Origin: an uncultured Rhodospirillaceae bacterium
Lineage (GTDB): Bacteria > Pseudomonadota > Alphaproteobacteria > Rhodospirillales > UBA2165
Length of the DNA: 64,000 bases
Reading direction: 5' to 3'
Assembly (NCBI GenBank): GCA_964611435.1
Contig: CAZSXT010000002.1
Coordinates: 64,308-128,307, forward strand
Part shown: piece after piece, positions 26,126-50,137 of the stretch
Numbering within the stretch: position 1 is the stretch's first letter
Layout of the letters: each line of letters begins with the position of its first letter
The notes under the pieces: generated by a model
What the model was told of the DNA's origin: nothing
Database searches by the model: none
Seen by the model: only the letters and a program-made list of their open reading frames with translations
Made by a program: the position numbers and the translations under genes

Positions 26126-26132
26126 ACAATCA

Positions 26133-26156
26133 ACCCGCCATCTGGCGGGTTTTTTG
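26133..26156 (+). terminator. rho-independent terminator after tRNA-Gln
   Basis: Stem cccgcc / ggcggg with loop atct, followed by tttttt. Confidence 0.75.
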
Positions 26157-26357
26157 GTGGCTTGCGGTATGAAGAGACGAACCCTGTTCGAACCCATGGT
26201 CGGTGACACTCCACCATCCACGACCTTGTCAGTGACGCTAAACCACATCCTATCCCTCCACCTCCAGCCAACCGGCAAATTCGATACTGACACAGGACGA
26301 ATGCTATATTAAATTGTCATAATTTTTATTATTACATACATAAATAGATCGCACGTG

Positions 26358-27041: not shown

Positions 27042-27190
27042 AGTCGCCGGATCGGCGGGAACACTCCCCCGACCCAGCAATAAATCTAGTGGCATATTTG
27101 GCGGACGACAGGTGTCGTTCGTTCCGTGACTCACCCGGCCTCTCCCGCTAGTTTAAACCCAATAAACAACAAATACCGGGGAGGACATCC

Positions 27191-28321: not shown

Positions 28322-28340
28322 CGATGGCCACAGGAGACAA

Positions 28341-29183: not shown

Positions 29184-29259
29184 ACGGTGAAAATTTGGGA
29201 CGTCGGGCTATTCGCTTGGCTAACAAAACTAATAAATTTCTATCAAAAGGAGGCACACC

Positions 29260-32788: not shown

Positions 32789-32793
32789 GGGGT

Positions 32794-34428
32794 CTATTTG
32801 ATCACGTTGCGGACCGGGGTGTTGGGCTTGATCCCCTTGTGCCGCATCTGTTCAGAGCGTTTGCCGTTCTCCAGATAGTCGCCGGCCACGGCGCGGGCCG
32901 CCAAGTTGTCCCACTCGTCGGTCCAGTCGCCTAGGGAATAGCCGTGCCACGGGCTTTCCGGCGTCAGCGTGCCGAGGCCCAGTTTCTCCCAGAGGTCCTT
33001 GGCGTGCTCCATGAATTCTTTCTTGGGCAGGGCCAGGGGTGCGGTCTCGTGCTTCAGGGTCGCGTCCACCAGCATGGTGCCGTCGGTGCTTTTATCGCCG
33101 CCCTTGGGCCCGTGCCCGCCGTCCCGGTTTGGCAGGATGACGATATCCGTGCTCGGGTTGGCCCGGTAGGCCATGGACCAAAACACCGCGTCGCCGTTGT
33201 TGGGATCGATATCCTCGTTCACCGCCATCACATACTTGCCGCAATCGGCCCGGAGCGTGGAGGCACCGTAAAGCGCCCGCCATACCTCGGTCTTTGGCAC
33301 GCCGGGCTCCATCACGATAAAGATCACCCGGCGGATATTGGTCAGCGGCTCGTGCATCACAACGTTTTTGACGCCCTTGATGCCCAGGGTCTGCTGCAGG
33401 TGGGCCAGGAACATCTGCTCATACGCATCCCGCTTGATGGAGCTGGATTCCGACGGGGTCACTTGAGAGATGATGGAAGCGAACATGGCTTTTTGCTTCC
33501 GGGTGATCGCGGTGACATCGAAAATCATATTGAAGTCTTCGAGCGATATATGTCCGTGGGATTCCCCAAACGGCGCTTCCGGCTCCAGATATTCCGTGTC
33601 GATCAGGCCTTCGATGATGATCTCCGAATCCGCCGGCACCATCAGGTCATTGGTCACACATTTGACCATGCGGATCGGCTCCCCGGCCAGACCGCCAGCC
33701 ACCCCCATCTCATCAACGCCCAGGGGCACTTTCTGCGGGCCCGTATAGGCCACGGTGGGGGGACAGCCGAGAACGCAGACGCAGGGCATCTTCTCCCCCC
33801 GCGCCTGATACTTAAGCCAATGGGGATAGCCACCGGCGCCGCCGGCCCTTGTCGCCATTCGAACGCCCAACCGATTTGAAGCTTTGAGCCCACCCCGGTA
33901 GGTGCCGAAGTTCTGCACCCCCGTGTCCGGATCGCGCGTAACAAAATTGCCGGCCGTAATATAAGGCGCGACATCAAAGCCCGGCGTGGAGATCGGCACC
34001 GGCAGGGCATCCAATCCCTTGCCGTCGCCGATTAAATCGTCGCCCTGCAGGATCACTTCCTGACAGGCCGCCTCGGTCACTTCCACCGGATCAATGGGCT
34101 GGGACATGGCGCGCCGCCAAATCTCCCCAACGCCCGCCGCATCCACATTAAGCCCGGTGCGGTAAATTTCCCGGCTGCCGGCCAACGCGCCGACCACCAC
34201 CGGCATGTCATACTTTCTGCCCTTGGAATCGACCACATTCGTGAAAACAAAGGCTCGGCGGTTCTCTTCCGGCACACCGCCCCGGTATTGCCAGCGCACC
34301 AGGGGATGCATCTCGGTATCTTTATTGATTTCGGAATCGATGCGCTGAACCAGCCCGGCCTTTTCCAGATTGGCGAGGTGATCCTGAAAATCCGCGTAAC
34401 CGCGTTTGGTGGGGGCCTTGGCGTCCAT
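32794..34428 (-). CDS. UbiD-family (prenyl-FMN-dependent) decarboxylase, paralog 1
   Basis: 544 aa with EINKDTEMHPLVRWQYRGG and LEPEAPFGESHGH. The stop lies 5 nt before the Mo-subunit start. Confidence 0.9.
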   Translation of the reverse strand: MDAKAPTKRGYADFQDHLANLEKAGLVQRIDSEINKDTEMHPLVRWQYRGGVPEENRRAFVFTNVVDSKGRKYDMPVVVGALAGSREIYRTGLNVDAAGVGEIWRRAMSQPIDPVEVTEAACQEVILQGDDLIGDGKGLDALPVPISTPGFDVAPYITAGNFVTRDPDTGVQNFGTYRGGLKASNRLGVRMATRAGGAGGYPHWLKYQARGEKMPCVCVLGCPPTVAYTGPQKVPLGVDEMGVAGGLAGEPIRMVKCVTNDLMVPADSEIIIEGLIDTEYLEPEAPFGESHGHISLEDFNMIFDVTAITRKQKAMFASIISQVTPSESSSIKRDAYEQMFLAHLQQTLGIKGVKNVVMHEPLTNIRRVIFIVMEPGVPKTEVWRALYGASTLRADCGKYVMAVNEDIDPNNGDAVFWSMAYRANPSTDIVILPNRDGGHGPKGGDKSTDGTMLVDATLKHETAPLALPKKEFMEHAKDLWEKLGLGTLTPESPWHGYSLGDWTDEWDNLAARAVAGDYLENGKRSEQMRHKGIKPNTPVRNVIK

Positions 34429-34577: not shown

Positions 34578-36377
34578 ATGTCCGATCCGATCAGCTACGG
34601 CAGCATGAGATATCCGGAAACCCCGGTGAACCTGCCGGCCAATCAGTCCAAGGCGGAATATGGATCCGACGTCATGGCCGACACGCTGCGCAATATGGGT
34701 TTCAAGCATGTGTTTGTGCTGCCCGGCTCCAGTTTTCGCGGGCTGCATGACTCGCTAGTGAACCATAATAGAAACCAAGGTCCGGAAATGATCATGGGCA
34801 GCCACGAGGCGGTGGTCGTTTCCATGGCCCATGGTTATGCAAAGGCGGCGGGCGAAACCTCCCTGGCGCTCATTCATGATCTGGTTGGGCTGATGACCGG
34901 CACGGTCAGCGTCTATAATATCTGGTGCGACCGGACGCCGGTGCTGATCCTGGGCGGCAGCGGTCCGTTTGATCCAGCACAGCGCCGCCCCATCGATTGG
35001 ACCCACACCGCCAGCATGCAGAGCGATCTGGTCAAACCGTTCTGCAAGTGGACGGACGAACCGTTAACCCTACAGTCGTCGGTGGATTCCCTGCTGAAAG
35101 CCAATAAGATTGCCGGCACGGCGCCGAAAGGCCCGGCCTACATCTGTCTGGATCAGGTCATCCAAGAAGGCGGCATCCCGGATGATCTGGTGCAGCCCGA
35201 TGCCGGCGTTGCCCGGTATCAACCCGCCCCGCCCATGGCGCCCAACCCGGATGCTCTCAACGAAGCTGTCGAATTACTGGTAAACGCAGAGATGCCGCTG
35301 ATCACCGCCGGCCGGTTGGGCCGGGAACGGCGCTCCCGCGAACCGCTGATCGAGCTTGCCGAATTAACCGGCGCGGCCTGTAACGATGACCGTCATCTGG
35401 TCGCCTTCCCCACTGCCCATCCGCAGAACCTCAATAGCGATCATGACATAAAGGCCGAGGCCGACGTGATCCTGGCGCTGGATTGCGTCGATCCCACCAA
35501 CGCCTATGACGGGCACGTAAAAGGGGTGCGCGGCAAAGATGGCCAGACCGTGATCGAAATGAGCCTGGAGCACACGGTCAATGACAGCTGGTCCCATTTC
35601 GGCGGACCGGTGGCGGCGGTTGATCTGCAGATCGATTGCGACCCGAACCTGGGCCTGGACCATTTGAACGCCGCGCTGAAAACACGGATCGACGGCGACG
35701 ACGCCTTGCAACAGAAAATTGCGGCGCGTAAGGACGCATTGGGCGAGCGGCACGCCAAGCTGCGGGAGGCGCAACATGAGCGTTGGCAGGAAAGCTGGGA
35801 CTCGTCCCCCATCGCCACTGGCCGCATGGTGCATGAACTGTATCAAGCAGTGAAGGACAAGCCCTGGACCATGGTGCTGCGCAACAACCGGAGCTTCCCG
35901 GAAGGCTGTTGGGATTTTGCCGGCGCGGGAGATTTCCTGGGCGGCGACGGCGGCGGCGGCGTGGGCTACGGTCCAGGAGGCTCCATCGGTGCGGCTCTGG
36001 CGCTCCGGGAACAAGGGCGTTTCCCGGTCAGCATCACTGGCGACGGTGATTTCCTGATGGGTGCGGGCGCGCTCTGGACGGCCGCTCACTATCAAATTCC
36101 GCTGTTGCTGGTGATCAATAACAACAATAGCTGGGGCAATGACGAGCACCACCAAATCCGCGTCGCCAACAAACGCAACCGGCCACCGGAAAACGCCTGG
36201 ATCGGCCAGCGCATGGCCGAGCCCACCATCGACTACGCGACCGTCGCACGGGGCTACGGCGCCTGGGCGGAAGGCCCGGTGGATCATCCGGCGGAGCTGG
36301 CGGGCGTGTTCAAGCGCGCCGTCGCCGAAGTGGATAAGGGCAACGTCGCCATCGTCGATGTCAGGACGGTGCTCTAG
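34578..36377 (+). CDS. thiamine diphosphate-dependent enzyme (decarboxylase/carboligase class)
   Basis: 599 aa with GSHEAVVVSMAHGYA (catalytic Glu) and GDGDFLM...NNNSWGN (ThDP motif). Confidence 0.85.
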   Translation: MSDPISYGSMRYPETPVNLPANQSKAEYGSDVMADTLRNMGFKHVFVLPGSSFRGLHDSLVNHNRNQGPEMIMGSHEAVVVSMAHGYAKAAGETSLALIHDLVGLMTGTVSVYNIWCDRTPVLILGGSGPFDPAQRRPIDWTHTASMQSDLVKPFCKWTDEPLTLQSSVDSLLKANKIAGTAPKGPAYICLDQVIQEGGIPDDLVQPDAGVARYQPAPPMAPNPDALNEAVELLVNAEMPLITAGRLGRERRSREPLIELAELTGAACNDDRHLVAFPTAHPQNLNSDHDIKAEADVILALDCVDPTNAYDGHVKGVRGKDGQTVIEMSLEHTVNDSWSHFGGPVAAVDLQIDCDPNLGLDHLNAALKTRIDGDDALQQKIAARKDALGERHAKLREAQHERWQESWDSSPIATGRMVHELYQAVKDKPWTMVLRNNRSFPEGCWDFAGAGDFLGGDGGGGVGYGPGGSIGAALALREQGRFPVSITGDGDFLMGAGALWTAAHYQIPLLLVINNNNSWGNDEHHQIRVANKRNRPPENAWIGQRMAEPTIDYATVARGYGAWAEGPVDHPAELAGVFKRAVAEVDKGNVAIVDVRTVL

Positions 36378-36381
36378 TCCC

Positions 36382-38028
36382 ATGGCCAGGAAATCCTCAA
36401 AGAAGCGAAGCTACAATAATCTGCCCGAACATCTGGCGGCGTTGCGCAAAGCCGGCCTGTTGATGGAGGTCGATCGGGAGATCAACAAAGACACAGAGAT
36501 GCATCCCTTGGTCCGCTGGCAGTACCGGGGCGGCATGTCGGAAGCCGAACGCAAGGCCTGGCTGTTCACCAACGTGGTCGATAGCAAGGGCCGTAAATTC
36601 GATATGCCGGTGGTGCTGTGTGCGCTGGCCGGCAGCCCGTCCATCTATGAGGTCGGGTTCGGCTCATCGCTGGACCAGATTACCGACCGCTGGATCAAGG
36701 CGATCAAAGACCCGCTCGAACCCAACGAGATCGCGCCTGATGACGCGCCGTGTCAGGAAGTCGTCTATCAGGGCAAGGACCTTACGACGGGCCACGGGCT
36801 GGATGACCTGCCGATCCCCATCTCCACACCCGGATGGGATAACGCACCCTATACGTCCGCATCACACTTCATCACCAAAGACCCGGAGACCGGCGTTCAA
36901 AATGTCGGCACCTATCGCGGTCAGGTAAAAGCGCCGGACCGGCTGGGCATGAACACCTCGACCGAACTTCGCACCGGTGGCTACATCAACTGGCTCGCCT
37001 GGAAAGAACGGGGCGAGCGCATGCCCTGCGCCGTTGTCATCGGCTGCCCGCCAGTCGTATCGTACGCTTCTGTCCAAAAAGTGCCCGAGGGCATCGACGA
37101 GATCGCCGTCGCGGGTGCGCTGGTGGGCGAACCCATCGATGTTGTTCCGGCCAAAACCGTGGACCTGATGGTCCCGGCGGAAGCAGAAGTGGTGATCGAA
37201 GGCTATGTGGACACCGAGTTTCTGGAACCGGAAGCACCCTTCGGCGAATCCCATGGGCACGTAAACCTACAGGAGTATAACGGGTTCATGGACGTCACTG
37301 CCATTACCCGGAAGGAAAAGGCCATCATCACGTCGTGGGTGAGCCAGGTCGCGCCCAGCGAATCCAGCGTGATCCGCCGTTTTGCCTACGAGGCCCGCAA
37401 TCTGGCGTACCTCCGAGACACGATGGGCATCAAACAGGTGATCACGGTGAAGGCCCACGAGCCGCTGACATCGCTGCATCGGGTGCACGCTATCGTGTTC
37501 GAGCACGGCGCCACCCAAACCGAGGTTTGGCGGGCGCTGTATGGATTATCGGGCTATCGGCAGTCGGAAGGCAAATGGATCATCGCGGTGAACGAGGATA
37601 TCGACGGCTCGAACGCGGACGCGCTGTTCTGGGCCATGGCCTACCGCTGCAAGCCTCAGCATGATGTGCAGATCCTGAAACATCAGGACGCCGGCCACGG
37701 CCCTCGCAGCATGGTCGATCCCGAAGACGCATCGGTACTGGTGGATGCTACATTGAAAGAGACCTATCCGCCGATTTCCCTGCCGAAGCGGGAGTTCATG
37801 GAGCGGGCCGCCGAAATTTGGAAAGAATTAGGCCTGCCCGAACTTTCACCCCAAGCGCCCTGGTACGGCTATGACCTGGGCGAATGGACCGAAGAGTTTG
37901 AACAGATGGCCGAGCGGGCGGTGAACAGCGACTATTGGCAGACCGGCAAGATCATCGCGCAACGGCGGCGCAGCGACGTTCCCATGAACACCGAGGTGCG
38001 CACGGTCGACGGTAAAGACGACGAGTAG
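36382..38028 (+). CDS. UbiD-family decarboxylase, paralog 2
   Basis: The ATG at 36382 lies 4 nt after the ThDP-enzyme stop. The 548-aa protein is colinear with paralog 1. The first 81 codons of the 629-aa track ORF overlap the ThDP gene and were rejected. Confidence 0.9.
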   Translation: MARKSSKKRSYNNLPEHLAALRKAGLLMEVDREINKDTEMHPLVRWQYRGGMSEAERKAWLFTNVVDSKGRKFDMPVVLCALAGSPSIYEVGFGSSLDQITDRWIKAIKDPLEPNEIAPDDAPCQEVVYQGKDLTTGHGLDDLPIPISTPGWDNAPYTSASHFITKDPETGVQNVGTYRGQVKAPDRLGMNTSTELRTGGYINWLAWKERGERMPCAVVIGCPPVVSYASVQKVPEGIDEIAVAGALVGEPIDVVPAKTVDLMVPAEAEVVIEGYVDTEFLEPEAPFGESHGHVNLQEYNGFMDVTAITRKEKAIITSWVSQVAPSESSVIRRFAYEARNLAYLRDTMGIKQVITVKAHEPLTSLHRVHAIVFEHGATQTEVWRALYGLSGYRQSEGKWIIAVNEDIDGSNADALFWAMAYRCKPQHDVQILKHQDAGHGPRSMVDPEDASVLVDATLKETYPPISLPKREFMERAAEIWKELGLPELSPQAPWYGYDLGEWTEEFEQMAERAVNSDYWQTGKIIAQRRRSDVPMNTEVRTVDGKDDE

Positions 38029-38030
38029 GC

Positions 38031-39254
38031 TTACTCGGCGGCGGCCGGCTCGACCTTCCACTTGGAGGAAAAAACCGCGACCGGATCGGGAAAGCCCTTC
38101 ATTTCCCGGGCGCCCCGATTTTCGAACTTCATGGCCTTGCCGCGGCAGATTGACGCAACAACTTCGGACACCATGACCTCGCCGGTAGAGGCGATGGCGC
38201 AGATGCGGGCCGCCATCTGAACGGCGGAACCAAAGATATCATCTTCTTCCCGGACGGGTTCACCGGCGTTGATGCCGATCCTGACCCCCATCGGGTCTTC
38301 CTTGCGGGCCAGATTAAAATTTTCGACGCCGCGCTGGATCGCGTTGGCCGCCTCGACCGAGTTAGTCACCCCATCGAAGGACGCCATGATGCCGTAGCCG
38401 AGATGTTTGATTTCCTTGCCGCTGAACCGGGTAATGGCGGCGCGAACGATCCGATTGTGGGCGCGGAGAATTTCCTGCGCCTCTGCATCGCCAGCCTTCT
38501 GGGTTAGCTCCGTATAGCCCATGATTTCCGTAAACATGATGGCGATGGTTTCAGCCTCACTGGCGCCCGAGGCTTTTTCCTCTTTCTTGTTCCACTCCTT
38601 CAATGCTTCAATCAGCATACCCGGCGCGGAGCTATCGCCATTGAGTTGAGCCTGCATGGCGTCCCGGCCCTTTTCGATCATCGACATGTATTTGGGCACG
38701 CGAAAATAATCGTCGTAATCTTCGACAAACTTTTCTGCCTGCGGCGGTTTGGCGCCGACGATTTCCATGGAGGCCCGGATAATCTGCTTGATCTCGCCTT
38801 CTTCCAGATCTTCATCCGTGCCGATCACATCGCTGGCGCCTGTGGCGAACAATACCGAACCGAACTTGTTGAACATGTCCATTTTCACGTTCGCTCCATG
38901 CACCGAAGAGACGCAATCCTGCATGAAGTCGAGAACCGTCTGCTGAACTTTCACCGCCGCAGGTGAAAGCGGAAATTTTTCTCCCGACGGGATATCTTCC
39001 GAGGAATCCGTCTCGTCGGGCGCTTCCTGCTCCTCCTGTTGCTGGCGCAGGCGCTCTTGCTGGCGCTTGTATGCCGCCATTTGATGGGGGGTCAGCATTG
39101 GACCGTCGAGCGTTTGTTTCCAACGCTCTTTCTCTTCGGACTCGAAATCTTCGGCCCGGAGCTGCCCAGTCAGCAGCTTCAACAGACCCACGAACAGCCC
39201 ACCGCTGGAAACAACGGTCGGTCTACTTGGTCGCTGTGAGGATCCATTACTCAT
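38031..39254 (-). CDS. class III nucleotidyl-cyclase homology domain protein with substituted catalytic residues
   Basis: The C-terminal CHD is IAIMFTEIMGYT...IKHLGYGIMASF...RIGINAGEPV...FGSAVQMAARI. The roughly 240-aa N-terminal region was not recognised. The start is 39254 or 39314. Confidence 0.75.
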   Translation of the reverse strand: MSNGSSQRPSRPTVVSSGGLFVGLLKLLTGQLRAEDFESEEKERWKQTLDGPMLTPHQMAAYKRQQERLRQQQEEQEAPDETDSSEDIPSGEKFPLSPAAVKVQQTVLDFMQDCVSSVHGANVKMDMFNKFGSVLFATGASDVIGTDEDLEEGEIKQIIRASMEIVGAKPPQAEKFVEDYDDYFRVPKYMSMIEKGRDAMQAQLNGDSSAPGMLIEALKEWNKKEEKASGASEAETIAIMFTEIMGYTELTQKAGDAEAQEILRAHNRIVRAAITRFSGKEIKHLGYGIMASFDGVTNSVEAANAIQRGVENFNLARKEDPMGVRIGINAGEPVREEDDIFGSAVQMAARICAIASTGEVMVSEVVASICRGKAMKFENRGAREMKGFPDPVAVFSSKWKVEPAAAE

Positions 39255-39369
39255 CACACGGCTATTCCCTAGTGCACCCCGGTTCGGATCGAGAAAATTC
39301 CAATACCCCACCACTGCACAAATGCCGGTCTTTGCGACCGATTATTCTTGTCTTGCCGTCAAAATTGTC

Positions 39370-39387
39370 TGTGACATCACAGTCACT
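39370..39387. promoter_or_regulatory. nested palindromes built from TGTGA/TCACA half-sites
   Basis: tGTGACatcacaGTCACt is GTGAC-N6-GTCAC, overlapping TGTGA-ca-TCACA. Confidence 0.3.
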
Positions 39388-39497
39388 TGCGGCATTTCTA
39401 GCGCCTTTAAGGTTGGAAATCAACAACATGTCTACGTACTTCCCACAGGGTCATTACGATGCAATGGCTCCAGATTGCAGATATACGCCTGTATTTC

Positions 39498-39513
39498 AGT
39501 GATTTTTGTCACT
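39498..39513. promoter_or_regulatory. CRP-like palindrome AGTGA-N6-TCACT
   Basis: Perfect 5+6+5 palindrome agtga-tttttg-tcact. The core GTGA-N6-TCAC matches the CRP-type consensus spacing. Confidence 0.35.
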
Positions 39514-39686
39514 TCTTGGGTAGATATTCAACGTCCGGTTCCTCGTGGGAAAAACGTAAAAACCCGCGTTTTCAGTCATTGAAATCGGGCGCTTTGCCTT
39601 GGATAACGACATTGCCCGGCCGGATTGTGACCTGTACCATCTTATTCTGAATCGAGGCTGACCCCACAGCCAGCAGGGAGAGACAG

Positions 39687-41903
39687 ATGTTTTTCAGGTC
39701 CAAGAATAAAGACCGGCCGTTCCATTGGGGGCCCTATCCCCTGGAGCGCTTGCCGCACGACGCCAACATCACCGATATCGAGTCGAACAAGCCGCCGGTG
39801 GCGAAACCGGCCGTTCCGCCGGTCCCGGCAGATAACCCTTTTGCCATGGCGGTCGACAAATACGCTAAAATTTTCCGTGAACAGGGCAAGGTCGATCCCT
39901 TGCCGCCGAAAGCGCCGGTGCCGGACGATCTTGCGCGCCGGACCCAGGACATCAAGGGCGCCGGCTATTTCCTGGACGCTTCCCAGATGGGAATCTGTAA
40001 ACTGCCCGCGAACGCCTGGTATGCCGGAGAAACCGCGACAGACCATGACCACGCCATCGTCATCATGGTGGCCCATGGCCGGACCCCTGAAGACGACAAC
40101 CTGGCCCACAAGTGGGTAAAGGGGCAGGAAGGGATCGGCGGACGGCTCCGCGCTCTGGAAATCGCCATTGCCATCGGCGAACATATTCAGTGGATGGGAT
40201 ATTCCGCCCGAGCCCACGATCCGGAAACCGGTCAGGTGGATATGGATCGGCTATCTGTGCTGGCTGGTCTCGGCATCCGGTCGGGCGACAAAATCGTGAA
40301 CCCTTATTTGGACGACAAATTTGAACTGGCCGTGGTCACCACGAACTATGCGTTGGCGATTGACACTCCGCTTTCGAATCGCGCCCGCAACGCCAAGGGT
40401 TTCGGCTATATGATCGGCGCCGGTGGCGCGGTGCCGGGTCTGGAGTGGAGCCGCCGCGCCGGCCGCAAAACCCATATGAGCAACTACCCGCTGGAACAGG
40501 TGAAAAGAGTCGATGAACCAACGACCCTAATCTTCGAAGACGAAGTGCCCAAGGTTTCCAAACGGGCCGAGTTTTTCGAGCGAGCCGCCCGGGGCGATAT
40601 GGGTCAAAAATCCCAGTTGGAGCGTTCCCGGTTTTCCTTCAAACACCCGTTCGCCCAGGCCATGGTCAGCCTGATCAAGTGCATGGTTCCGGAACAGGGT
40701 GGAGACACAGCCCCCGTGGCGCCAGGTTACGACGACGCCGAGGCCAATACCAAAGCGATCAAATCGTTATCCTACTATCTCGGCTCGGAGATGACCGGCA
40801 TTTGCGAAATACCCGGCTACGCCTGGTATTCGCATCGCAAGGACGGCTCCGAGATTAAGCCTTACAACAAATACGCAATCGTCATGTTGATCGACCAGGG
40901 CTATGAGACCATGGAAGGCGCATCCGGGGATGACTATATTTCCGGCGCCCAGTCCATGCGGGCCTATATGCGCGGTGCAGAGATCGCCGGCATCATGGGC
41001 GAATTGTTCCGTTCCCTCGGATACTATTCCCGGTCACAGACCAATGCGGATTCCGAGGTCCTGCACCCGCCGCTTGCCCTGGTCGCCGGGTTGGGAGAGC
41101 TAAGCCGGATTGGCGAGGTGATTCTGAACCCGTTTATCGGCCCACGGTTGAAAACCGTGGTGCTCACCACCGACATCCCTCTGGTGCCGGACAAACCGAT
41201 GGACTTCGGCCTCCAATATTTCTGCTCCAACTGCTGGAAATGCGCCCGGGAATGCCCGTGTGACGCCATATCCTGGGGCGATAAGGTGATCTTCAACGGT
41301 TACGAAATGTGGAAACCGGATGTGGAACGGTGCACTCGCTACCGGCTGACCAATCCCAAGGGACTGGCTTGCGGCCGCTGCATGAAAACCTGTCCTCTGA
41401 ACAAGGTGGTCACTTGGGAAGGGCCGATTGCGACGCGGGTCGCCTCTTGGTTCGGGGTGAATGTCCGCTGGCTTAAACCGCTTTTGGTGCCCATTGCCGT
41501 CAAACTGGATGATGCCCTCGGCCACGGGGTGCGCAATCCGGTTAAGAAATGGTGGCTGGACATGGAAATTGTCGATGGCAAGTGCATTGATCCGCCCAAA
41601 GGCGTCAATCAGCGCGACCTCAACCTTGATCACAAACTCGATCCGGCGGATCAAAAAATGGCCTATTACCATGCGGACGTTATGCCGCCGCCTGATGCGG
41701 GCGATCCTGTGCCAGTGGACCGAAAGGCGGCCTTGAAGGCGAAGGAATTGCTGGAATCTCCTGCCGAAGCGCTGGCCCGCCGTGCGGCTGGTAAACCCAA
41801 GCCGGGACATTATAATCCGACGCCGGCTCTGGGCACCGGGATGGATGTGGAACATGCGTCCGCCAACGCCATCTGGGACAAACCTCGGGGCCGGGAAAAC
41901 TAA
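39687..41903 (+). CDS. reductive-dehalogenase-like protein (RdhA/QueG superfamily, 2x[4Fe-4S]), cytoplasmic
   Basis: 738 aa with a GGGAGAG RBS. It has CSNCWKCARECPCDA plus a split C-x12-CGRCMKTCP motif. There is no Tat or Sec leader. Confidence 0.5.
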   Translation: MFFRSKNKDRPFHWGPYPLERLPHDANITDIESNKPPVAKPAVPPVPADNPFAMAVDKYAKIFREQGKVDPLPPKAPVPDDLARRTQDIKGAGYFLDASQMGICKLPANAWYAGETATDHDHAIVIMVAHGRTPEDDNLAHKWVKGQEGIGGRLRALEIAIAIGEHIQWMGYSARAHDPETGQVDMDRLSVLAGLGIRSGDKIVNPYLDDKFELAVVTTNYALAIDTPLSNRARNAKGFGYMIGAGGAVPGLEWSRRAGRKTHMSNYPLEQVKRVDEPTTLIFEDEVPKVSKRAEFFERAARGDMGQKSQLERSRFSFKHPFAQAMVSLIKCMVPEQGGDTAPVAPGYDDAEANTKAIKSLSYYLGSEMTGICEIPGYAWYSHRKDGSEIKPYNKYAIVMLIDQGYETMEGASGDDYISGAQSMRAYMRGAEIAGIMGELFRSLGYYSRSQTNADSEVLHPPLALVAGLGELSRIGEVILNPFIGPRLKTVVLTTDIPLVPDKPMDFGLQYFCSNCWKCARECPCDAISWGDKVIFNGYEMWKPDVERCTRYRLTNPKGLACGRCMKTCPLNKVVTWEGPIATRVASWFGVNVRWLKPLLVPIAVKLDDALGHGVRNPVKKWWLDMEIVDGKCIDPPKGVNQRDLNLDHKLDPADQKMAYYHADVMPPPDAGDPVPVDRKAALKAKELLESPAEALARRAAGKPKPGHYNPTPALGTGMDVEHASANAIWDKPRGREN

Positions 41904-41929: not shown

Positions 41930-42946
41930 ATGAACGACGTTGTTGCACCCGCCCCCCTGGTGGAGGTCACGCGAAACGGCGTAGTGGAAAGCATCCACTA
42001 CGGCCATGTGGCCGTCGCCAATTATAAGGGCGAGATTCTTAAGGGTGCGGGAGACATCAACACCATCACCTATCCCCGCTCCGCGATGAAGCCCATCCAG
42101 GCCCTGGCCCTGATTGAATCCGGCGCGGCAAAAGCCTTTGATCTAGAACCCAACCACATTTGCCTGGCCTGTGCCTCCCATTGGGGGGAGCCCTATCACA
42201 TCGATACGGTCCGGCACTGGCTGGATATGATCGACTGTACGGAAGAACATCTGACCTGCGGCCACGACTTTCCTATCAATGTGGAGGAGATGGAAAAAAT
42301 CCTAGCCGCCGGCGGTAAACGGGAACGGATTTATCACAATTGCTCGGGCAAGCATGCAGGGCTTCTGACGCTTGCCCGCCACCTGGGTCACGATTTGGAC
42401 TACGGCAATTTCGATCATCCCGTTCAAAAGGCCTACCGGGAAAACCTATCGATCTTGATCGACCGCGATGCGGACGGCTTGGACTGGGGCATTGATGGAT
42501 GCACCTTGCCCGCGCCCGCTTTGCCACTGGGCCTGATGGCGACAGCCTTTGCCCGGCTGTCCGCGCCGAGCGTGTTGGAGAACGCCAAGAAAATGGCGGC
42601 GCTTACCATTTTTGACGCCATTGCCCAGGAACCCAATTACCTGTGGGGCACGAACGGACCCGGCAGCGACATTGTCCGGCTTACACGAGGCCGAATCATC
42701 GCCAAGATCGGCGCCGAAGGATATATGGCCGCGGCTGACCGTCAAAGCGGGCTGGGAATTGCCCTCAAAATTAGTGATGGCGCCCGGCGGCCCGTCTGCG
42801 TCGCGCTGATCGGCGTGCTAATAGAGCTGGGCATGCTGCACGACAGCGAGATCGAGGCGTTGCAAATGCACCATCGCCCGCCTGTCGCGAATTCCGGCGG
42901 AGAGATTGTGGGCGAACTCCGCGCCACAGAGAAAATCCTGAATTAG
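41930..42946 (+). CDS. asparaginase-II-family (Rhizobium etli type) protein
   Basis: 338 aa with a YPRSAMKPIQALALIESG motif. It lies 26 nt downstream of the RdhA-like gene. Confidence 0.65.
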   Translation: MNDVVAPAPLVEVTRNGVVESIHYGHVAVANYKGEILKGAGDINTITYPRSAMKPIQALALIESGAAKAFDLEPNHICLACASHWGEPYHIDTVRHWLDMIDCTEEHLTCGHDFPINVEEMEKILAAGGKRERIYHNCSGKHAGLLTLARHLGHDLDYGNFDHPVQKAYRENLSILIDRDADGLDWGIDGCTLPAPALPLGLMATAFARLSAPSVLENAKKMAALTIFDAIAQEPNYLWGTNGPGSDIVRLTRGRIIAKIGAEGYMAAADRQSGLGIALKISDGARRPVCVALIGVLIELGMLHDSEIEALQMHHRPPVANSGGEIVGELRATEKILN

Positions 42947-42952
42947 ATTGGA

Positions 42953-43768
42953 CTAGCTCGTCAATTCCGGATCGGAGAGAATTTTGTCCAACTCTTCACG
43001 GCTTTCCTCGACGCATTTCTGGTGGAAGGCAACCGCGTCCGGATCCAACTTATTGGTAATTTCCTGCACAAAGCTCGGTCTTTCCCGCATACGTTCCAGC
43101 CACGCCGTATAGGCGGGCCGGTCCGCATGCAGCGTGCCAAACCCTATCACATCCAACCGATGCAAGTACGGCACCAGCCCAGTGTCGGCGAGGCTGAACT
43201 CTTCGCCGGCCAGCCACGGGCCGGACTCTTGCAGTGACGCGTCCAGTTCCTTGATCAGACGCCGGTAGCGTTTCAACGCGATCGGGATCAGCGGCGACTT
43301 CACCCCTTCCGCAACTAGCGACTTCTGCCGGCGCATGGCGATCGGGTTCGGGTTGGCGTCAAAAAAGGCCTGCATCTCCTCCGGCGTCTTGGACCGGTAG
43401 ATGATCCGAAACACCAAACCGACATTGAGACTGTTAATGGAATGGCTGATCCAGCTCACGGTTTGTTCGGTTTGCCAGCGCATCCGCGCCCGGCCACGCG
43501 CGGTCGATGGCTTCAACGGCGGCTCCGGAAACTTATCGTCCAGATACTCACAGATCACCGTGGATTCAACGAAGGTTTCCCCGTCATCCACCAATGCCGG
43601 AACTTGGGCGTTTGGATTTACTTTTTTGTACTCGGGATCGAACTGCTCCCCTTTCTGCAGGTCCAAAATCCGGCTTTCGAATTCGAGACCTTTTTCCGCC
43701 AGAACCAAACGGACTTTTTGCGCGTTCGTTGAAAACGGGTTGTCGAAAAGGATCAGCATGGCTGTCAT
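42953..43768 (-). CDS. glutathione S-transferase family protein
   Basis: The N-terminal thioredoxin-like GST domain reads LFDNPFSTNAQKVRLVLAEKGLEFE...VPALVDDG...ESTVICEYL. Confidence 0.85.
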   Translation of the reverse strand: MTAMLILFDNPFSTNAQKVRLVLAEKGLEFESRILDLQKGEQFDPEYKKVNPNAQVPALVDDGETFVESTVICEYLDDKFPEPPLKPSTARGRARMRWQTEQTVSWISHSINSLNVGLVFRIIYRSKTPEEMQAFFDANPNPIAMRRQKSLVAEGVKSPLIPIALKRYRRLIKELDASLQESGPWLAGEEFSLADTGLVPYLHRLDVIGFGTLHADRPAYTAWLERMRERPSFVQEITNKLDPDAVAFHQKCVEESREELDKILSDPELTS

Positions 43769-43841
43769 TCCCTATAAGAAAATCATGACCGGAGAGTGCA
43801 TCGCCTAGAAACGTCTGGCAATGCCATTTCCGTTGCCGGTT

Positions 43842-44684
43842 TCAGCCGTCCCGGCCACCGAGACCATCGGGAAATATGTCATCCAGGATCGCCGCCATTA
43901 CTTCGTCCAACGGCCGTTTACGGGGCTGCTCGCCGAAGCAAAATGTCGGCACATCCTCGTGCCCGGCGAACGGGTCGCAATGTTTTAGATCATCCTGGTT
44001 CAATAACTTAACCCCGGCCTTGTAGGCGGCCGCCACCGGCGCGCGGGCGATCATCAGTTTGCCTGCGCCTGTCTCCACCGGACCGTTCGCCGTGGAAAAG
44101 GCGACAGGGACAAGATCGCCCCGCTGCACTGTGTAAGCGTCATTCAGAAAAAACTCGTACACCGCCTCTGTCACCGTCGGATACCAGGGATTAAACAGAT
44201 CGTCAGCGATAATGACCCCGTCCGGAGCGAGCACCCCTGCGGCCAGGGCGAGCTCACTCAAGACCGCGTCCTTACCATGGTCGCCATCGACACTGAACAG
44301 ACGAACGTCGTTGCCGCCGCACAAACCCGCCATGTCGGCCGGGCTCATAGACAAGCTATCCCCCACCTCCAATCGGTAACGGTCCCGTCCGAAACCGTAC
44401 TTCGCCATGTTGGCGTGGAATATGTCTAGGTCATCCGTATGGCTGCCCATGGGATCGCCGAACACATCCACGCCGATGCCGATCTCATCATTGCGGAGCC
44501 CGTGGCAGAGCAGCAGAAACGTCTTTCCCCGGAATACGCCGATCTCGGCCACCGGTCCCCGCACATCCCAATGGTCCTGCAATTCGATTAACGACCAGAT
44601 GATGGCCAAGGAACCTGATTGCAGCATACCGTGAATGTCATTCACACCGACCGTGGCATAGTGATGGAGCGCCTGTTTGTTCAT
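43842..44684 (-). CDS. class I SAM-dependent methyltransferase-like protein (Methyltransf_24-like)
   Basis: VAEIGVFRGKTF...FSVDGDHGKDAVLSEL...GVIIADD. Confidence 0.6.
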   Translation of the reverse strand: MNKQALHHYATVGVNDIHGMLQSGSLAIIWSLIELQDHWDVRGPVAEIGVFRGKTFLLLCHGLRNDEIGIGVDVFGDPMGSHTDDLDIFHANMAKYGFGRDRYRLEVGDSLSMSPADMAGLCGGNDVRLFSVDGDHGKDAVLSELALAAGVLAPDGVIIADDLFNPWYPTVTEAVYEFFLNDAYTVQRGDLVPVAFSTANGPVETGAGKLMIARAPVAAAYKAGVKLLNQDDLKHCDPFAGHEDVPTFCFGEQPRKRPLDEVMAAILDDIFPDGLGGRDG

Positions 44685-44716
44685 GGACCCACTATACGCC
44701 GGAACAAATAAACAAA

Positions 44717-44764
44717 AAGCTGACAGCAGGCCGGCGGCGGCCTAGGATTTTCGCTCGTCAGCTT
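44717..44764. promoter_or_regulatory. nested palindrome in a divergent promoter region
   Basis: The outer 8-bp inverted repeat aagctgac/gtcagctt encloses the hairpin aggccg-gcgg-cggcct (44728-44743). Confidence 0.4.
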
Positions 44765-44784
44765 GCATCGCAAAGGAACACATT

Positions 44785-45279
44785 ATGACCGGCGATCTTA
44801 AACCTCCCGCTATCAATCCCATGTCCATCGAAGCCGGCACAGGCACCTTGTACCCGGCGCATCTGGACTGCCCGGCGGAACCGCGGATCAAACGCCGTTT
44901 GGGCGACGCCTTGGGTCTGACTAAATTCGGGGTGAATCTCAGTATCCTGCCGCCTGGCGCCTGGTCGGCCTTCCGTCACTGGCACGAACAGGAAGATGAA
45001 TTCGTCTACATCCTGGAAGGCGAGGCCACCTTGGTTACCGATCACAGTGAGCAGATTCTTGGCCCCGGGGCGGCCGCAGGATTCCCCGGCGGCAAGGCCG
45101 ACGGCCACGTGCTTAAGAACAATACCGAAAACGATCTGGTCTATCTGGAGGTCGGCAACCGGTTCGACGACGAGGATGTCCACTATCCGGACGTCGATCT
45201 GCACCTGGAGAAACGACCGGGCAAACGTCAGTACTATGACAAGAAAGGAAACCCTCTGGAGGGGAAGGTCACCGCTTGA
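44785..45279 (+). CDS. cupin-domain protein
   Basis: 164 aa with FRHWHEQEDEFVYILEGE...G..AGFP.G...H, a cupin motif pair. Confidence 0.8.
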   Translation: MTGDLKPPAINPMSIEAGTGTLYPAHLDCPAEPRIKRRLGDALGLTKFGVNLSILPPGAWSAFRHWHEQEDEFVYILEGEATLVTDHSEQILGPGAAAGFPGGKADGHVLKNNTENDLVYLEVGNRFDDEDVHYPDVDLHLEKRPGKRQYYDKKGNPLEGKVTA

Positions 45280-45291
45280 TCGACCTTGGCC

Positions 45292-45579
45292 CTAGCGCCG
45301 GCCGGTAAACTGCTGCACGAACGCCTGCTTGTCTTCTTCGTCGTCAAACATGACCTTGTAGCTGCGGGCGTTCAGGCTGTCGTCCATATCTTCAAGGGTC
45401 AGCCCCCACTGGAACTTGCAATTGTCTTCCAGCCAGTTTTCGATCAGCCGGAAGGATTCATTTGTCCGGAATATGAGTCCGAACTTCCAGCCCCGCCGCT
45501 CAGCCGACTTCCGACCATATTGGACATCGGATGAATCGCCATCCTGCGAACGCCGGTCATAAATTTCGTTGTCGCTCAT
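45292..45579 (-). CDS. hypothetical protein
   Basis: 95-aa ORF with a plausible codon pattern. No motif was recognised. Confidence 0.5.
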   Translation of the reverse strand: MSDNEIYDRRSQDGDSSDVQYGRKSAERRGWKFGLIFRTNESFRLIENWLEDNCKFQWGLTLEDMDDSLNARSYKVMFDDEEDKQAFVQQFTGRR

Positions 45580-45864
45580 TCTAGAACTGATCCGTCACTC
45601 GATCCCAGGAATTATCCATAGCATGACGCTTCGCTAGATCTCTTTTCAGTCTATGATATAGGCACAAATTGAGAAAAACCAACTCGGGTAGTGCCGTCCT
45701 TGTCAGGGAAAACCCGGAATCCCGCGCTGGGAGTCGCTTTTCTTGAACTAATCTGCTATGATTCCTGCTTGATCGGGAGGTTTAGGCCGGATCGGGATAG
45801 AATGTCCCTGGGCCGAAGCTCCCGGAGAAAGACAGATTGAGATGCGACAGGAGGTCGCGATCCA

Positions 45865-47112
45865 ATGACCGTCGAAGCGTTCAGTTCGACAGCGACGATC
45901 GTGGGTGCCATCACAGGCGGTGTAGAAGCCGTTGACCGCGCCCTATTGCGAAGTCGCGGCACGGCCCAGTCCAGTGTGGCCAAAAGTCTGCAGGAGCAGT
46001 TCGGCTCTCGCATCGATGCGGCTTTGGCCAATCTCAACGCCGGCGTCTCCAACGCCAAGACCGAGGCCCTGGCCAGCGAACAGGCGGTCCTGATCGGCCG
46101 TAAATCCCGCATCACCGAAGCGGTGGAGGTGATCAGCCAGGCGCTCAGCCAATTCGATTACCTGAAGAACCACATCACCTATCTGGAGGAGCAGATTACC
46201 AGTCTTGAGAACGGCGACATTACGGCCGCGACACTGGCCGCCGACTGGGACAATAAACTCCGCAAGATCAACCAATTATCCGACGCCGGTGATGAGCAAT
46301 ATTTCGACGGCGGGCTCTATTATCAAAAGAACCTGATTGGCTCTTTGTCGCGGGAAACTTTCCTCACACAAAATCTATACGCGCCGTTCAATTCAGAGGG
46401 CGATCTCTATCAGGTTGCGGGCGTTTATCTGGGCACCGACTACCACCTGACCGAAACCAGTCCCGGTTCCGAGGTCTGGTATTCGGACGTAGGCTTTTTG
46501 GGCTCAGAAGAGGCCACCGGCACGCTGACCGAATATACCAGTTTCCCCGATACGCCGACGGGCAACACCGAAGATGTCACCACCATCAATTTCACCGGCT
46601 TTACCGATAACGCGGGCAGTGACGACGTGGTGGCCTTCACAATGACAGACGCTACCCCGGTCACGGCAACGGTCAACCGGGGCGGGCTCGGCATCCTGGA
46701 TGCATGGCTGTATGACGATTTTTCCACCGCCGTCGACGCCAACGCCATCGAACGCGCCAAGGCGGATTTGAACGCCGCCGAGGGAAAAATCCTGACCGCC
46801 GAGGCGGAGTTCCGCGCAGACCTGCAGGCATTGCAATCCCGCTCCAGCATCTTCGACAGTTTGATCGACGGAATCGAAAAAGAGATTCAGGCGAACATCC
46901 AGGACGTCCGCGACGACCAGGAGGCCGACCTGCTGGCCCTGCAGCTTGAGTTCGAAGTGGCGAAGTTCGGTCTGTCGCTGTTGGCGGCCAGAGGCAGCAC
47001 CTTGGTCTTCAGTTTGATCATCGCCCAGGATGCCGGCACCGGCGATGTGCCGGCCAGCACCAAACAATCGGGCGAGGCCGTGCTGGGCGCGACCCTTAAC
47101 GTCAGGGCATAG
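45865..47112 (+). CDS. hypothetical protein with flagellin-like tripartite architecture
   Basis: 415 aa, with AGGAGG 11 nt upstream. Helical heptad-rich N-terminal (about 150 aa) and C-terminal (about 130 aa) regions flank a Thr/Gly/Asp-rich middle. The C-terminal tract resembles the flagellin CD0/CD1 style. Confidence 0.6.
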   Translation: MTVEAFSSTATIVGAITGGVEAVDRALLRSRGTAQSSVAKSLQEQFGSRIDAALANLNAGVSNAKTEALASEQAVLIGRKSRITEAVEVISQALSQFDYLKNHITYLEEQITSLENGDITAATLAADWDNKLRKINQLSDAGDEQYFDGGLYYQKNLIGSLSRETFLTQNLYAPFNSEGDLYQVAGVYLGTDYHLTETSPGSEVWYSDVGFLGSEEATGTLTEYTSFPDTPTGNTEDVTTINFTGFTDNAGSDDVVAFTMTDATPVTATVNRGGLGILDAWLYDDFSTAVDANAIERAKADLNAAEGKILTAEAEFRADLQALQSRSSIFDSLIDGIEKEIQANIQDVRDDQEADLLALQLEFEVAKFGLSLLAARGSTLVFSLIIAQDAGTGDVPASTKQSGEAVLGATLNVRA

Positions 47113-47118
47113 ATTTCC

Positions 47119-48174
47119 TTAAAGATGCGCGAGAGCGTGCTTGGCGACTTTCTTCATGACCGTCGGCAATGCGTGATCACCGAGCTGATCTATGGGCGCC
47201 CACACCCCTTCGGGCGCCATGTCGTCGCCCGCCTCTCCCGCGAACACGGTGAGTTCCAGGTGAAAATGGGTGAAGGTGTGGCGCACCCGGCCTTCCAATA
47301 ATTTCCAGTCGGCCCGAACCGGCGCAGCCGCCTCGAGATCATCCGAGTTCCACGCCCCTTCCCGCCAGTCGCCCGTCGGAAACTCCATCATGCCGCCAAG
47401 CAGCCCCTGTTCCGGGCGGCGGCGCAACAGAACGCGGCCCTGCCGGTCGACCAGCCAGAAGATGATGCCCGACCGAGTCGGACGTTCCGCCTTCTTCTCC
47501 CGGACCGGATAGTCGGCGGCATCCCCACGGGCCGCGCCTTTGCAAATCTCCCGCCAGGGACAGAGCGCGCACATGGGATTACGAGGCGTGCAGATGGTCG
47601 CTCCCAGATCCATTACGGCCTGGGCGAAGTCGCCGTACCGCGCCGGCGGCAACATGCCCTTGGCCAGTTCGATGAGTTCCGGCTTAGCCTTGGGCATGGG
47701 GGTCTTTACCCGGTGCAGTCTTGCCATCACCCGTTCGATATTGCCGTCCACCGGCATGGCCGCCCGGTCAAAGGCGATGGCCGCAATCGCCGCCGCCGTG
47801 TAGGGACCGATCCCCGGCAGCGCCAAAAACCCCTCTTCCGTGTCGGGAAACACGCCGCCCAGCTCATCCGCCACCATGCGGGCGCATTTGTGCAAATTGC
47901 GGGCGCGGGCGTAATAGCCGAGCCCCTGCCAGGCGTGCAGCACCTCGTCCAGTTCGGCCCGCGCCAGATCGAGAACCGTGGGCCAGCGGGCCAGGAAATC
48001 CTCGAAATAGCCTTTAACCGACGCCACTGTCGTCTGCTGCAGCATGATCTCCGACAACCAAACGTGATACGGGTCGGGGACCACGCCGTCCCGCGCCCGC
48101 CACGGCAGGTTTCGGGCATGGCGGTCATACCAGTCGAGAAGGCGCGCCGCGGGATGATCTGACATTTTGGCCAT
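47119..48174 (-). CDS. mutY: A/G-specific adenine DNA glycosylase
   Basis: LLDWYDRHARNLPWR, an HhH-GPD region, a CxxxxxxCxxCxxxxxC cluster (CTPRNPMCALCPWREIC) and a NUDIX-like C-terminus. Confidence 0.9.
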   Translation of the reverse strand: MAKMSDHPAARLLDWYDRHARNLPWRARDGVVPDPYHVWLSEIMLQQTTVASVKGYFEDFLARWPTVLDLARAELDEVLHAWQGLGYYARARNLHKCARMVADELGGVFPDTEEGFLALPGIGPYTAAAIAAIAFDRAAMPVDGNIERVMARLHRVKTPMPKAKPELIELAKGMLPPARYGDFAQAVMDLGATICTPRNPMCALCPWREICKGAARGDAADYPVREKKAERPTRSGIIFWLVDRQGRVLLRRRPEQGLLGGMMEFPTGDWREGAWNSDDLEAAAPVRADWKLLEGRVRHTFTHFHLELTVFAGEAGDDMAPEGVWAPIDQLGDHALPTVMKKVAKHALAHL

Positions 48175-48236
48175 GGGAAAAGACTAGCACGGACGGCGGG
48201 GCATGCTAAATTGCCTCTCAACAAAGGATCGAGACC

Positions 48237-48557
48237 ATGACCACGCAAAATATCATCGAACAGAAAATTTTGGACGCGCTCACGCCCAGCTATCTGGACG
48301 TGATCAACGAGAGCCATATGCACAATGTGCCGCCGGGCTCCGAATCACATTTCAAGGTGGTGGTGGTGTCAGAAGCGTTTGACGGCCAGCGGCTGGTCCA
48401 GCGCCATCAGCAGATCAACGCGCTGCTGGCCGACGAGCTGGCGGGTGGCGTGCACGCGCTCACCATGCAGACCCTCACCGAAGAGGAATGGGTGAAGAAA
48501 AACGGCGTGGTACCGGATTCTCCCAACTGTCACGGTGGCTCGAAGGCGGACCGCTAG
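48237..48557 (+). CDS. bolA: BolA family protein
   Basis: 106 aa with [23 protein letters not shown]...RHQ. Confidence 0.85.
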
Positions 48558-48625
48558 ACCCAAGCCCAGGACCGTATCCGGGTTAACGCCGGTGACAAAG
48601 CAGCACGCCTGCCGTAGCATCGCGT

Positions 48626-49099
48626 ATGACCATCAGACGCCGCCAGTTCCGCGCCATCGGCTCCACCGTGGAAAAGCTGACCAAGCCGGTGTTCGGCCGC
48701 CGGGGTTTTGGCTCGCCGGCCATCGTCAATGACTGGCCGGAGATCATCGGCGGCATCCTGGCCGAGCACACGTTTCCGGAGCGTATCGCCTATCCCGCCG
48801 GCAAGCGGTCCGAAGGCACGTTGCATCTAAAGATCGACAGCGCCGCGCTGGCGCTGGAGCTGCAACACTTGGCGCCGCAGGTCATGGAACGGGTGAACAC
48901 CTATTTCGGCTTTAAGGCGGTGGCGGACATCCGCATCCTGCAGGGACCGCTGCCGGAAAAGCCGGAAAAGAAACCGCCGCCCGCGCCGTTGGACGAGGCC
49001 AAAAAACAGGAACTGAATCAAAAGCTGACCCTGGTCACCGACCCGGAGTTGAAAGCCGCGTTGGAGTCCTTGGGGACCGAGGTGATCCGCGACCGCTAG
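48626..49099 (+). CDS. DUF721 (DciA-like) protein
   Basis: 157 aa with WPEIIG...L.L.VDSAALALELQH, the typical DUF721 pattern. Confidence 0.7.
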   Translation: MTIRRRQFRAIGSTVEKLTKPVFGRRGFGSPAIVNDWPEIIGGILAEHTFPERIAYPAGKRSEGTLHLKIDSAALALELQHLAPQVMERVNTYFGFKAVADIRILQGPLPEKPEKKPPPAPLDEAKKQELNQKLTLVTDPELKAALESLGTEVIRDR

Positions 49100-50127: not shown

Positions 50128-50137
50128 TCCTGTCTCC

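Follow-up and report, generated by a model that had tools for sequence, protein, structure and literature searches.

A predicted NpRdhA-type catabolic reductive dehalogenase and its gene neighbourhood in an uncultured Rhodospirillaceae bacterium

Among the described catabolic reductive dehalogenases (RdhAs), the closest to the protein considered here is NpRdhA of Nitratireductor pacificus pht-3B, in which the phenol hydroxyl of the substrate is held by S422, K488 and R552, as seen in substrate-complex structures and mutants, Y426 is the proton donor, a halogen ligates the cobalt, and A419 lines the pocket of the second, non-ligating bromine (PMC7565698). A vestigial N-terminal duplicate of the core domain is a described feature of catabolic RdhAs, and BhbA and JtRdhA are self-sufficient members of the group, active on ortho-brominated phenolics (PMC10463259). 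The NpRdhA gene is reported to lie beside genes for a ferredoxin reductase and two ferredoxins (PMC10463259). The gene analysed here, rdhA (39687..41903, + strand), encodes a protein of 738 amino acids (aa) and lies in a stretch of 64,000 nucleotides (nt) from an uncultured Rhodospirillaceae bacterium (assembly GCA_964611435.1, contig CAZSXT010000002.1, positions 64,308 to 128,307 of the forward strand), which as a whole is referred to below as the window. An earlier note on this DNA had described a large cytoplasmic protein of reductive-dehalogenase type, followed by an asparaginase-II-family gene. The comparisons presented below make it highly probable that the product of rdhA is a catabolic, reductase-less RdhA of the NpRdhA subfamily, predicted to carry cobalamin and two [4Fe-4S] clusters and to be soluble and cytoplasmic.

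Family, architecture and conserved residues

The assignment is carried by a similarity that runs along nearly the whole protein. Residues 6-709 of the window RdhA align with residues 5-700 of NpRdhA (PDB 4RAS) at E=1.5e-195 in phmmer, and the two proteins are 47% identical over 693 aa in BLASTP, with the cobalamin core as the most conserved stretch of the alignment. Self-comparison of the window RdhA revealed an internal duplication, in which aa 74-229 (39906..40373, + strand) match aa 343-505 (40713..41201, + strand) with 30% identity and E=4e-22; a second high-scoring segment pair between the window RdhA and NpRdhA, duplicate to core, was found at E=2e-21. The first copy corresponds to the vestigial duplicate of the cobalamin-binding core. 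The second, judged by homology, would be the functional core, which contains Ser423 (40953-40955), Tyr427 (40965-40967) and Lys489 (41151-41153) and is predicted to bind cobalamin in the base-off form. It is followed by the iron-sulfur region (41223..41393, + strand), recognised in the translation and by PF12838 (Fer4_7), which holds Cys513, 516, 519 and 523, Cys549, 562, 565 and 569, and Arg553 (41343-41345). The first cluster motif, aa 513-527, reads CSNCWKCARECPCDA and has the form CxxCxxCxxxCP, and the second is interrupted, C549-x12-C562GRCMKTCP569. Among all open reading frames (ORFs) of at least 50 aa in the six frames of the 64 kb, the CxxCxxCxxxCP pattern occurs in rdhA only, which argues that it is not a chance pattern.

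The ATG at 39687 is preceded, 6 nt upstream, by the Shine-Dalgarno-like AGGGAG read from the sequence at 39675..39680 (+ strand). In alignment, this start position is common to three related loci, and AGGGAG is kept in L001 and L002, two loci of the same lineage whose RdhA is ~90% identical to that of the window, and in the more diverged L169 (the same locus as L087). No twin-arginine motif was found by a regular-expression scan of the first 70 aa of the protein, and a hydropathy scan detected no hydrophobic 19-mer anywhere in it. Between 37.5 and 44.5 kb there is no small, RdhB-like ORF with at least two membrane segments; the genes flanking rdhA are those of an adenylate cyclase and of the asparaginase-II-family protein. 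Searches against Pfam and NCBIfam found no FMN, NAD or 2Fe-2S reductase domain in the protein, Fer4_7 being its sole Pfam domain. The reading of this ORF in the earlier note (738 aa, a ribosome-binding site, two cluster motifs of which the second is split, neither a Tat nor a Sec leader, no small membrane-anchor gene, and an asparaginase-II-family gene 26 nt downstream) was borne out in all essentials. A trivial difference concerns the spacer between the first motif and C549, which comprises ~22-25 residues and not the ~30 that had been given.

The note had further placed the protein in the RdhA/QueG superfamily and had named profiles that separate the two branches. The RDH model TIGR02486 scored 163.8 bits against a cutoff of 160.35, and the QueG model TIGR00276 reached 22.3 bits against a cutoff of 200. 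Membership in the superfamily is confirmed in this way and can be stated more sharply, as its homology to NpRdhA, the very example that the note had chosen, extends over the full length of the protein. Epoxyqueuosine reductase (QueG) was rejected as the identity of the protein on the TIGR00276 score. A respiratory RdhA of the PceA type was rejected as well: the RR motif and the small membrane ORF are both missing, and the similarity to PceA (E=1.7e-27) is confined to residues 437-623.

The alignment to NpRdhA, which the earlier note had proposed as a check, retains the catalytic and Fe-S residues and differs at four substrate-pocket positions. It was extended to 79 sequences, consisting of the window RdhA, NpRdhA and the proteins of 77 genome loci; the NpRdhA sequence was rebuilt from the phmmer alignment and its numbering was checked against the published residues. 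In NpRdhA numbering, all 79 sequences have Ser422, Met423, Tyr426, Lys488, Arg552 and the eight Fe-S cysteines, and Phe290 and Phe310 are each present in 78 of the 79, both being kept in the window RdhA. The window equivalents are Ser423, Met424, Tyr427, Lys489, Arg553 and Cys513/516/519/523/549/562/565/569. The changes at the pocket and its entrance, from NpRdhA to the window protein, are K307R, P311S, M312F and A419G (R313, S317, F318 and G420 of the window RdhA, nt ~40623-40946), and W416Y and S420A are further changes. At 307, 311, 312 and 419 it is NpRdhA that is the outlier (K, P, M and A), the window RdhA having the majority state: of the other 78 sequences, 74 have R, 77 have A or S, 71 have F and 78 have G at these positions, respectively. 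Conclusions on substrate scope drawn from NpRdhA, which is atypical at these four positions, may therefore not hold for most of the clade.

Predicted chemistry, electron supply and points against the assignment

Judged by its homology to NpRdhA, the window RdhA would bind an ortho-halogenated phenolic substrate above the corrin, with the phenolate oxygen of the substrate held by Ser423, Lys489 and Arg553 and one of its halogens ligating Co(II). Electrons would enter by way of the two [4Fe-4S] clusters near the surface, the bond between carbon and halogen would be cleaved, and Tyr427, together with Lys489, would protonate the carbon, so that halide and the dehalogenated phenol are released. The first 330 residues may be regarded as a degenerate copy of the cobalamin core that stands in for the dimer partner of the respiratory RdhAs. 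The protein is probably monomeric and oxygen-tolerant. The conserved residues make ortho-halogenated phenolics a soundly inferred substrate class, and the likely substrate is a hydroxy-aromatic acid or a phenol that carries bromine (or iodine or chlorine). The four pocket differences leave the exact compound uncertain, and the preferred one may differ from that of NpRdhA; since A419 lines the pocket of the second bromine, the glycine at this position would enlarge the pocket of the window protein.

The source of the electrons is less clearly indicated by the locus. Apart from rdhA, the 64 kb hold no other 4Fe-4S, plant-type 2Fe-2S or Rieske ORF detectable by regular expressions, which would miss the CoxS-type 2Fe-2S spacing, and Pfam scanning of ~57 of the 60 candidate ORFs of the window found no ferredoxin or reductase domain. 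With neither a fused reductase nor a nearby ferredoxin or reductase gene, the electrons presumably come from an unlinked cellular ferredoxin or flavodoxin system, and the gene context of rdhA at other loci provides no consistent clue to the donor.

Several observations weigh against the assignment to the NpRdhA subfamily. The TIGR02486 cutoff was passed by just 3 bits, a marginal result obtained with a partial alignment (residues 389-573 only), and PF13486 gave no match at E<=0.01 in the Pfam scan. Four pocket positions are unlike those of NpRdhA. Moreover, no ferredoxin or ferredoxin-reductase gene lies near rdhA in the 64 kb, unlike the arrangement reported for NpRdhA. As regards the profiles, PF13486 covers the NpRdhA family poorly, and this is why annotation pipelines label rdhA with Fer4_7 only; the gene that they call merely a 4Fe-4S dicluster protein can now be given its correct name.

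Genes around rdhA

The region between rdhA and the divergent gene upstream of it comprises 432 nt (39255..39686). This upstream gene encodes a class-III adenylate/guanylate cyclase (38031-39314, - strand). A palindrome of the cyclic AMP receptor protein (CRP) type, aGTGA-TTTTTG-TCACt, occurs at 39498-39513 (core GTGA-N6-TCAC at 39499-39512), ~175 nt upstream of rdhA, and 39363-39388 holds a second inverted repeat, AATTGTCTGTGA/TCACAGTCACTT. The palindrome is kept in L001 and L002 and is not found in L169, whose rdhA has dctP upstream of it. Control of rdhA by cyclic AMP may be considered on the basis of these elements, whose regulatory role is conjectural. An RNA element ahead of rdhA, such as a cobalamin riboswitch, was rejected, as a scan of the window at Rfam gathering thresholds returned only the tRNA at 26049-26122. 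A second class-III adenylate/guanylate cyclase gene, with a CHASE2 sensor domain, is located at 59420-61555 (+ strand).

Beyond the cyclase gene lie two gene pairs. On the + strand, at 34578-38028, there is a gene for a thiamine pyrophosphate (TPP) enzyme followed by a UbiD gene, whose longest ORF (36139-38028) shares 239 nt with the TPP-enzyme gene. On identical contigs UbiD is called from window position 36382 (548 aa), 4 nt past the stop of the TPP-enzyme gene, which indicates that the longer ORF is an over-extension. On the - strand, a UbiD-family gene (32794-34428) lies 5 nt from a gene for a molybdenum (Mo)-cofactor-binding large subunit (30452-32788), and no Fe-S or FAD subunit genes were detected near this pair (30452-34428). 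The earlier note had suggested that RdhA feeds dehalogenated aromatic acids to neighbouring UbiD, Mo-hydroxylase and dioxygenase-type enzymes, and one may accordingly imagine RdhA as the entry enzyme of a local aromatic-acid island, in which UbiD decarboxylases, the TPP enzyme, the Mo hydroxylase subunit, cupins and a glutathione S-transferase (GST) process its product. Within ~10 kb there are indeed two UbiD genes, the TPP enzyme, the Mo large subunit, a GST, a methyltransferase and cupins; the genes that stand directly upstream of rdhA in L037 (3-1202) and L047 (5020-7854) encode Mo-cofactor subunits with 62-64% identity to the one in the window, and other rdhA clades adjoin aromatic-acid genes, namely AMP-ligase and PaaA/C. 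The genes in question are, however, on mixed strands and in separate transcription units, and the UbiD, TPP and Mo genes are found with rdhA only in sister genomes at ~90% identity, their place in L169 being taken by genes for a tripartite ATP-independent periplasmic (TRAP) transporter, an HpcH/HpaI aldolase and a cupin. The genes of the bicupin and of the luciferase-like protein, for their part, lie past mutY and dciA, in the housekeeping backbone, and no neighbour family occurs in more than 14 of 81 loci. What the note had proposed thus amounts to proximity, and an aromatic-acid island with RdhA at its entrance appears unlikely.

Downstream, 26 nt after the TAA of rdhA, asnII (41930..42946, + strand) encodes a class-3 (Rhizobium etli-type) asparaginase-II-family amidohydrolase of 338 aa. 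It matches PF06089 (Asparaginase_II) end to end, over positions 1-321 of the 322 of the profile (E=1.6e-102), and PDB 8CLY at E=1.5e-52. In the numbering of ReAV, this class is marked by two tandems, Ser48-Lys51 and Ser80-Lys263, and by a zinc site, Cys135-Lys138-Cys189, and the characterised PF06089-family members are specific for L-asparagine (PMC8602277). The AsnII residues S51/K54, S83, C138/K141, C191 and K259 are shared by all 15 sequences compared and were matched, by motif position, to ReAV Ser48/Lys51, Ser80, Cys135/Lys138, Cys189 and Lys263. AsnII thus looks like an intact class-3 asparaginase-type amidohydrolase. Its nearest relatives outside its own lineage are at most ~55% identical. 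The gap between rdhA and asnII contains no terminator-like hairpin in its 26 nt, which makes co-transcription plausible, and the two genes are probably co-transcribed in this lineage. On the other side, asnII is convergent with a GST gene (42953..43768, - strand; GST_N and GST_C domains), whose product is 58-61% identical in L086, L087/L169 and L089 and which is also present in L001 and L002; the convergent asnII-GST pair is kept in every AsnII relative of at least 53% identity. The spacing of the two genes is a 6-nt gap in the window and a 4-nt overlap in L086 and L087.

How far the adjacency of rdhA and asnII extends was determined from both sides, with 80 rdhA loci and 83 asnII-family loci; the metagenome scan for AsnII relatives was repeated with an alignment after a single-protein scan, whose patterns were too specific, had found none. 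A PF06089 gene lies within 8 kb of rdhA in two of the 80 loci, L001 and L002 only, even at E=1e-3, and rdhA accompanies asnII at one of the 83, L087/L169 only. The order of genes in L169 is dctPQM (-), rdhA (+), arylsulfotransferase (-), asnII (+), GST (-), alpha/beta-hydrolase, 2-oxoglutarate (2OG)-oxygenase, methyltransferase, cupin, DUF179, orf415, mutY, dciA, bicupin and luciferase-like gene, and from asnII to the luciferase-like gene it is that of the window from 41930 to 51202. The identities between the two loci are 79% for RdhA, 76% for the luciferase-like protein, 67% for MutY, 66% for orf415, 62% for DciA, 61% for GST, 60% for the methyltransferase, 58% for the cupin and 53% for AsnII, so that within the shared block RdhA is the most conserved protein and AsnII the least. 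The product of orf415 (415 aa; 45865-47112, + strand) has no Pfam or NCBIfam match, and in L169 it occupies the same mutY-adjacent position; its identity in L001 is 94%. In L169 (3347-11889) the TRAP transporter genes dctPQM are divergent from rdhA and the gene between rdhA and asnII is a PF05935 arylsulfotransferase; an arylsulfotransferase gene also lies beside asnII and GST in L086. Because the shared block includes the housekeeping genes mutY and dciA, the adjacency of rdhA and asnII can be seen as part of a vertically inherited block, and asnII is best explained as a neighbour of rdhA inherited by gene order rather than as a pathway partner.

Evidence for functional coupling of the two genes is weak, and two ways of picturing it were considered. 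Arylsulfotransferases act on phenols, and a phenol-processing theme is hence conceivable in the sister lineage. The window RdhA would, in the broader proposal, represent the large majority clade of reductase-less catabolic RdhAs (pocket R, S/A, F, G), whose natural substrate may not be the 3,5-dibromo-4-hydroxybenzoate of NpRdhA and might be found among bulkier or iodinated phenolics or, alternatively, halogenated amides of aromatic acids, and in this Rhodospirillales lineage it might form a module for natural marine halophenol derivatives together with the Ser-Lys amidohydrolase and, in the sister lineage, the arylsulfotransferase and the TRAP transporter; this is a speculative extension of low probability. 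The narrower proposal, likewise of low probability, is that rdhA and asnII constitute a functional operon, in which AsnII converts a halogenated aromatic amide (such as bromo-hydroxybenzamide or an amide derived from bromotyrosine) by hydrolysis into the acid that RdhA then dehalogenates, in parallel to the nitrilase-then-BhbA route of bromoxynil. The same strand, a gap of 26-29 nt and the lack of a terminator in the window, L001 and L002 are consistent with it, as are the intact active site of AsnII, the persistence of the adjacency, with one inserted gene, where backbone proteins are 53-67% identical, and the presence of hydrolase genes near other rdhA genes (Amidohydro_1 and an amidase in L047, Amidohydro_2 in five loci). 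However, the pairing is confined to the few loci counted above; the arylsulfotransferase gene that separates the two in L169 is on the opposite strand, so that they do not form one transcript there; and mutY and dciA point to vertical synteny. The invariable partner of the asnII subclade is the convergent GST gene, and L086 has asnII and GST without rdhA. The conservation of AsnII, the lowest in the block where that of RdhA is the highest, and the L-asparagine specificity of the characterised family members also argue against an operon of this function. The earlier note had called the link to an asparaginase-like protein an arrangement not known to it, and this agrees with the literature naming both, in whose titles and abstracts no rdhA-asparaginase arrangement is reported. 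The significance that the note had attached to this neighbour is not upheld, as the pair is restricted to one small clade, lies in a syntenic block with housekeeping genes and is interrupted in the diverged relative.

An RdhA fold and cofactors that serve a non-dehalogenating, QueG-like, B12-dependent reduction of a phenolic substrate would fit the four pocket residues unlike NpRdhA and a superfamily that holds QueG, a non-dehalogenase that reduces an epoxide, but it is hardly credible when every residue tied to halophenol binding and protonation is invariant, the QueG model gives 22 bits against a cutoff of 200, and the biochemically characterised NpRdhA and JtRdhA, ~39% identical to each other and sharing the duplicated architecture, are both dehalogenases.

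Distribution and comparison with known systems

The assignment of rdhA to the NpRdhA subfamily places it in a widespread group. Relatives of the window RdhA were counted among species-representative genomes, where they occur in at least 597, a lower bound, mostly of marine and sediment Rhodospirillales, other Alphaproteobacteria, Woeseiaceae and other Gammaproteobacteria. The identical protein, in identical gene order, was found in at least 32 sample blocks. These counts add to the evidence that cytoplasmic dehalogenases of the NpRdhA type are widespread in aerobic Alpha- and Gammaproteobacteria of marine and coastal habitats, which bears on natural bromine and iodine cycling and on bioremediation enzymology. 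A horizontally acquired island was rejected for rdhA and asnII, since the GC content at third codon positions (GC3) of rdhA (0.71) and asnII (0.70) matches that of their neighbours (0.68-0.78). The gene for a PduO-type cobalamin adenosyltransferase (818-1417, + strand; PF01923, E=9e-66), 38 kb from rdhA, indicates that the organism handles or uses B12.

Clustering of 774 neighbour ORFs from 81 rdhA loci revealed no conserved partner family in more than 14 of them. The top clusters are AMP-ligase, short-chain dehydrogenase/reductase (SDR), aldehyde dehydrogenase, IOR-like oxidoreductase, SSF/DUF485 transporter, D-Ser dehydratase-like protein, RecQ, Amidohydro_2 and PaaA/C, and none of these families occurs in the window. 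The recurring contexts of rdhA vary by clade (L004-L010, L013-L018, L047). In a Rhodospirillales clade at 70% identity, the genes downstream of rdhA encode an AMP-binding ligase and, as a conceivable source of reduced ferredoxin, an IOR-like 2-oxoacid:ferredoxin oxidoreductase; a gammaproteobacterial clade has the SSF/DUF485 transporter upstream and PaaA/C downstream; and L047 has, in addition to its Amidohydro_1 and amidase genes, a Rieske oxygenase. In another part of the window, 26049-29583, the tRNA gene (26049-26122) precedes a gene for an ankyrin-repeat protein (26355-27041), an ORF of 376 aa that Pfam does not recognise (27191-28321) and an ORF of low GC3 (28603-29583; 0.48 against ~0.7 elsewhere), and a variable region may have its border in this segment.

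Compared with described proteins, AsnII resembles ReAIV and ReAV of Rhizobium etli (PDB 8CLY and 7OS3) in its full-length PF06089 match, in both Ser-Lys tandems and in the Cys-Lys-Cys zinc site, although its match to ReAIV, at the E value given above, is moderate. For RdhA, the Roseobacter debrominase Ros_A3X954 was discarded as a comparison, being smaller and of a different type. PceA of Sulfurospirillum multivorans (PDB 4UQU) shares with the window RdhA the cobalamin core and the Fe-S region, residues 437-623. Proteins of its type have a Tat (twin-arginine translocation) leader, an RdhB anchor and a dimeric form and lack the N-terminal duplicate, whereas the window RdhA possesses the duplicate and has neither the leader nor RdhB. 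BhbA of Comamonas sp. 7D-2 and JtRdhA of Jhaorihella thermophila resemble it in the duplicated RdhA module and in Y426, K488 and R552 (PMC10463259); they differ by a C-terminal FMN/[2Fe-2S] reductase domain of the phthalate dioxygenase reductase (PDOR) type, which allows the direct use of NADPH, while the window protein ends after the RdhA module. NpRdhA (PDB 4RAS, 6ZXU, 6ZXX, 6ZY0 and 6ZY1) differs from the window RdhA in its adjoining ferredoxin-reductase and ferredoxin genes and in the lack of ~30 C-terminal residues (a 704-residue chain against 738 aa).

Summarizing, NpRdhA and the window RdhA are collinear throughout, from the core duplicate through the cobalamin core to the two [4Fe-4S] clusters, both have neither Tat leader nor RdhB nor reductase domain, and they are identical at S422, M423, Y426, K488, R552, F290, F310 and the eight Fe-S cysteines. 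The understanding of this enzyme class is left unchanged, and the window RdhA joins, alongside NpRdhA, a known and structurally characterised family.

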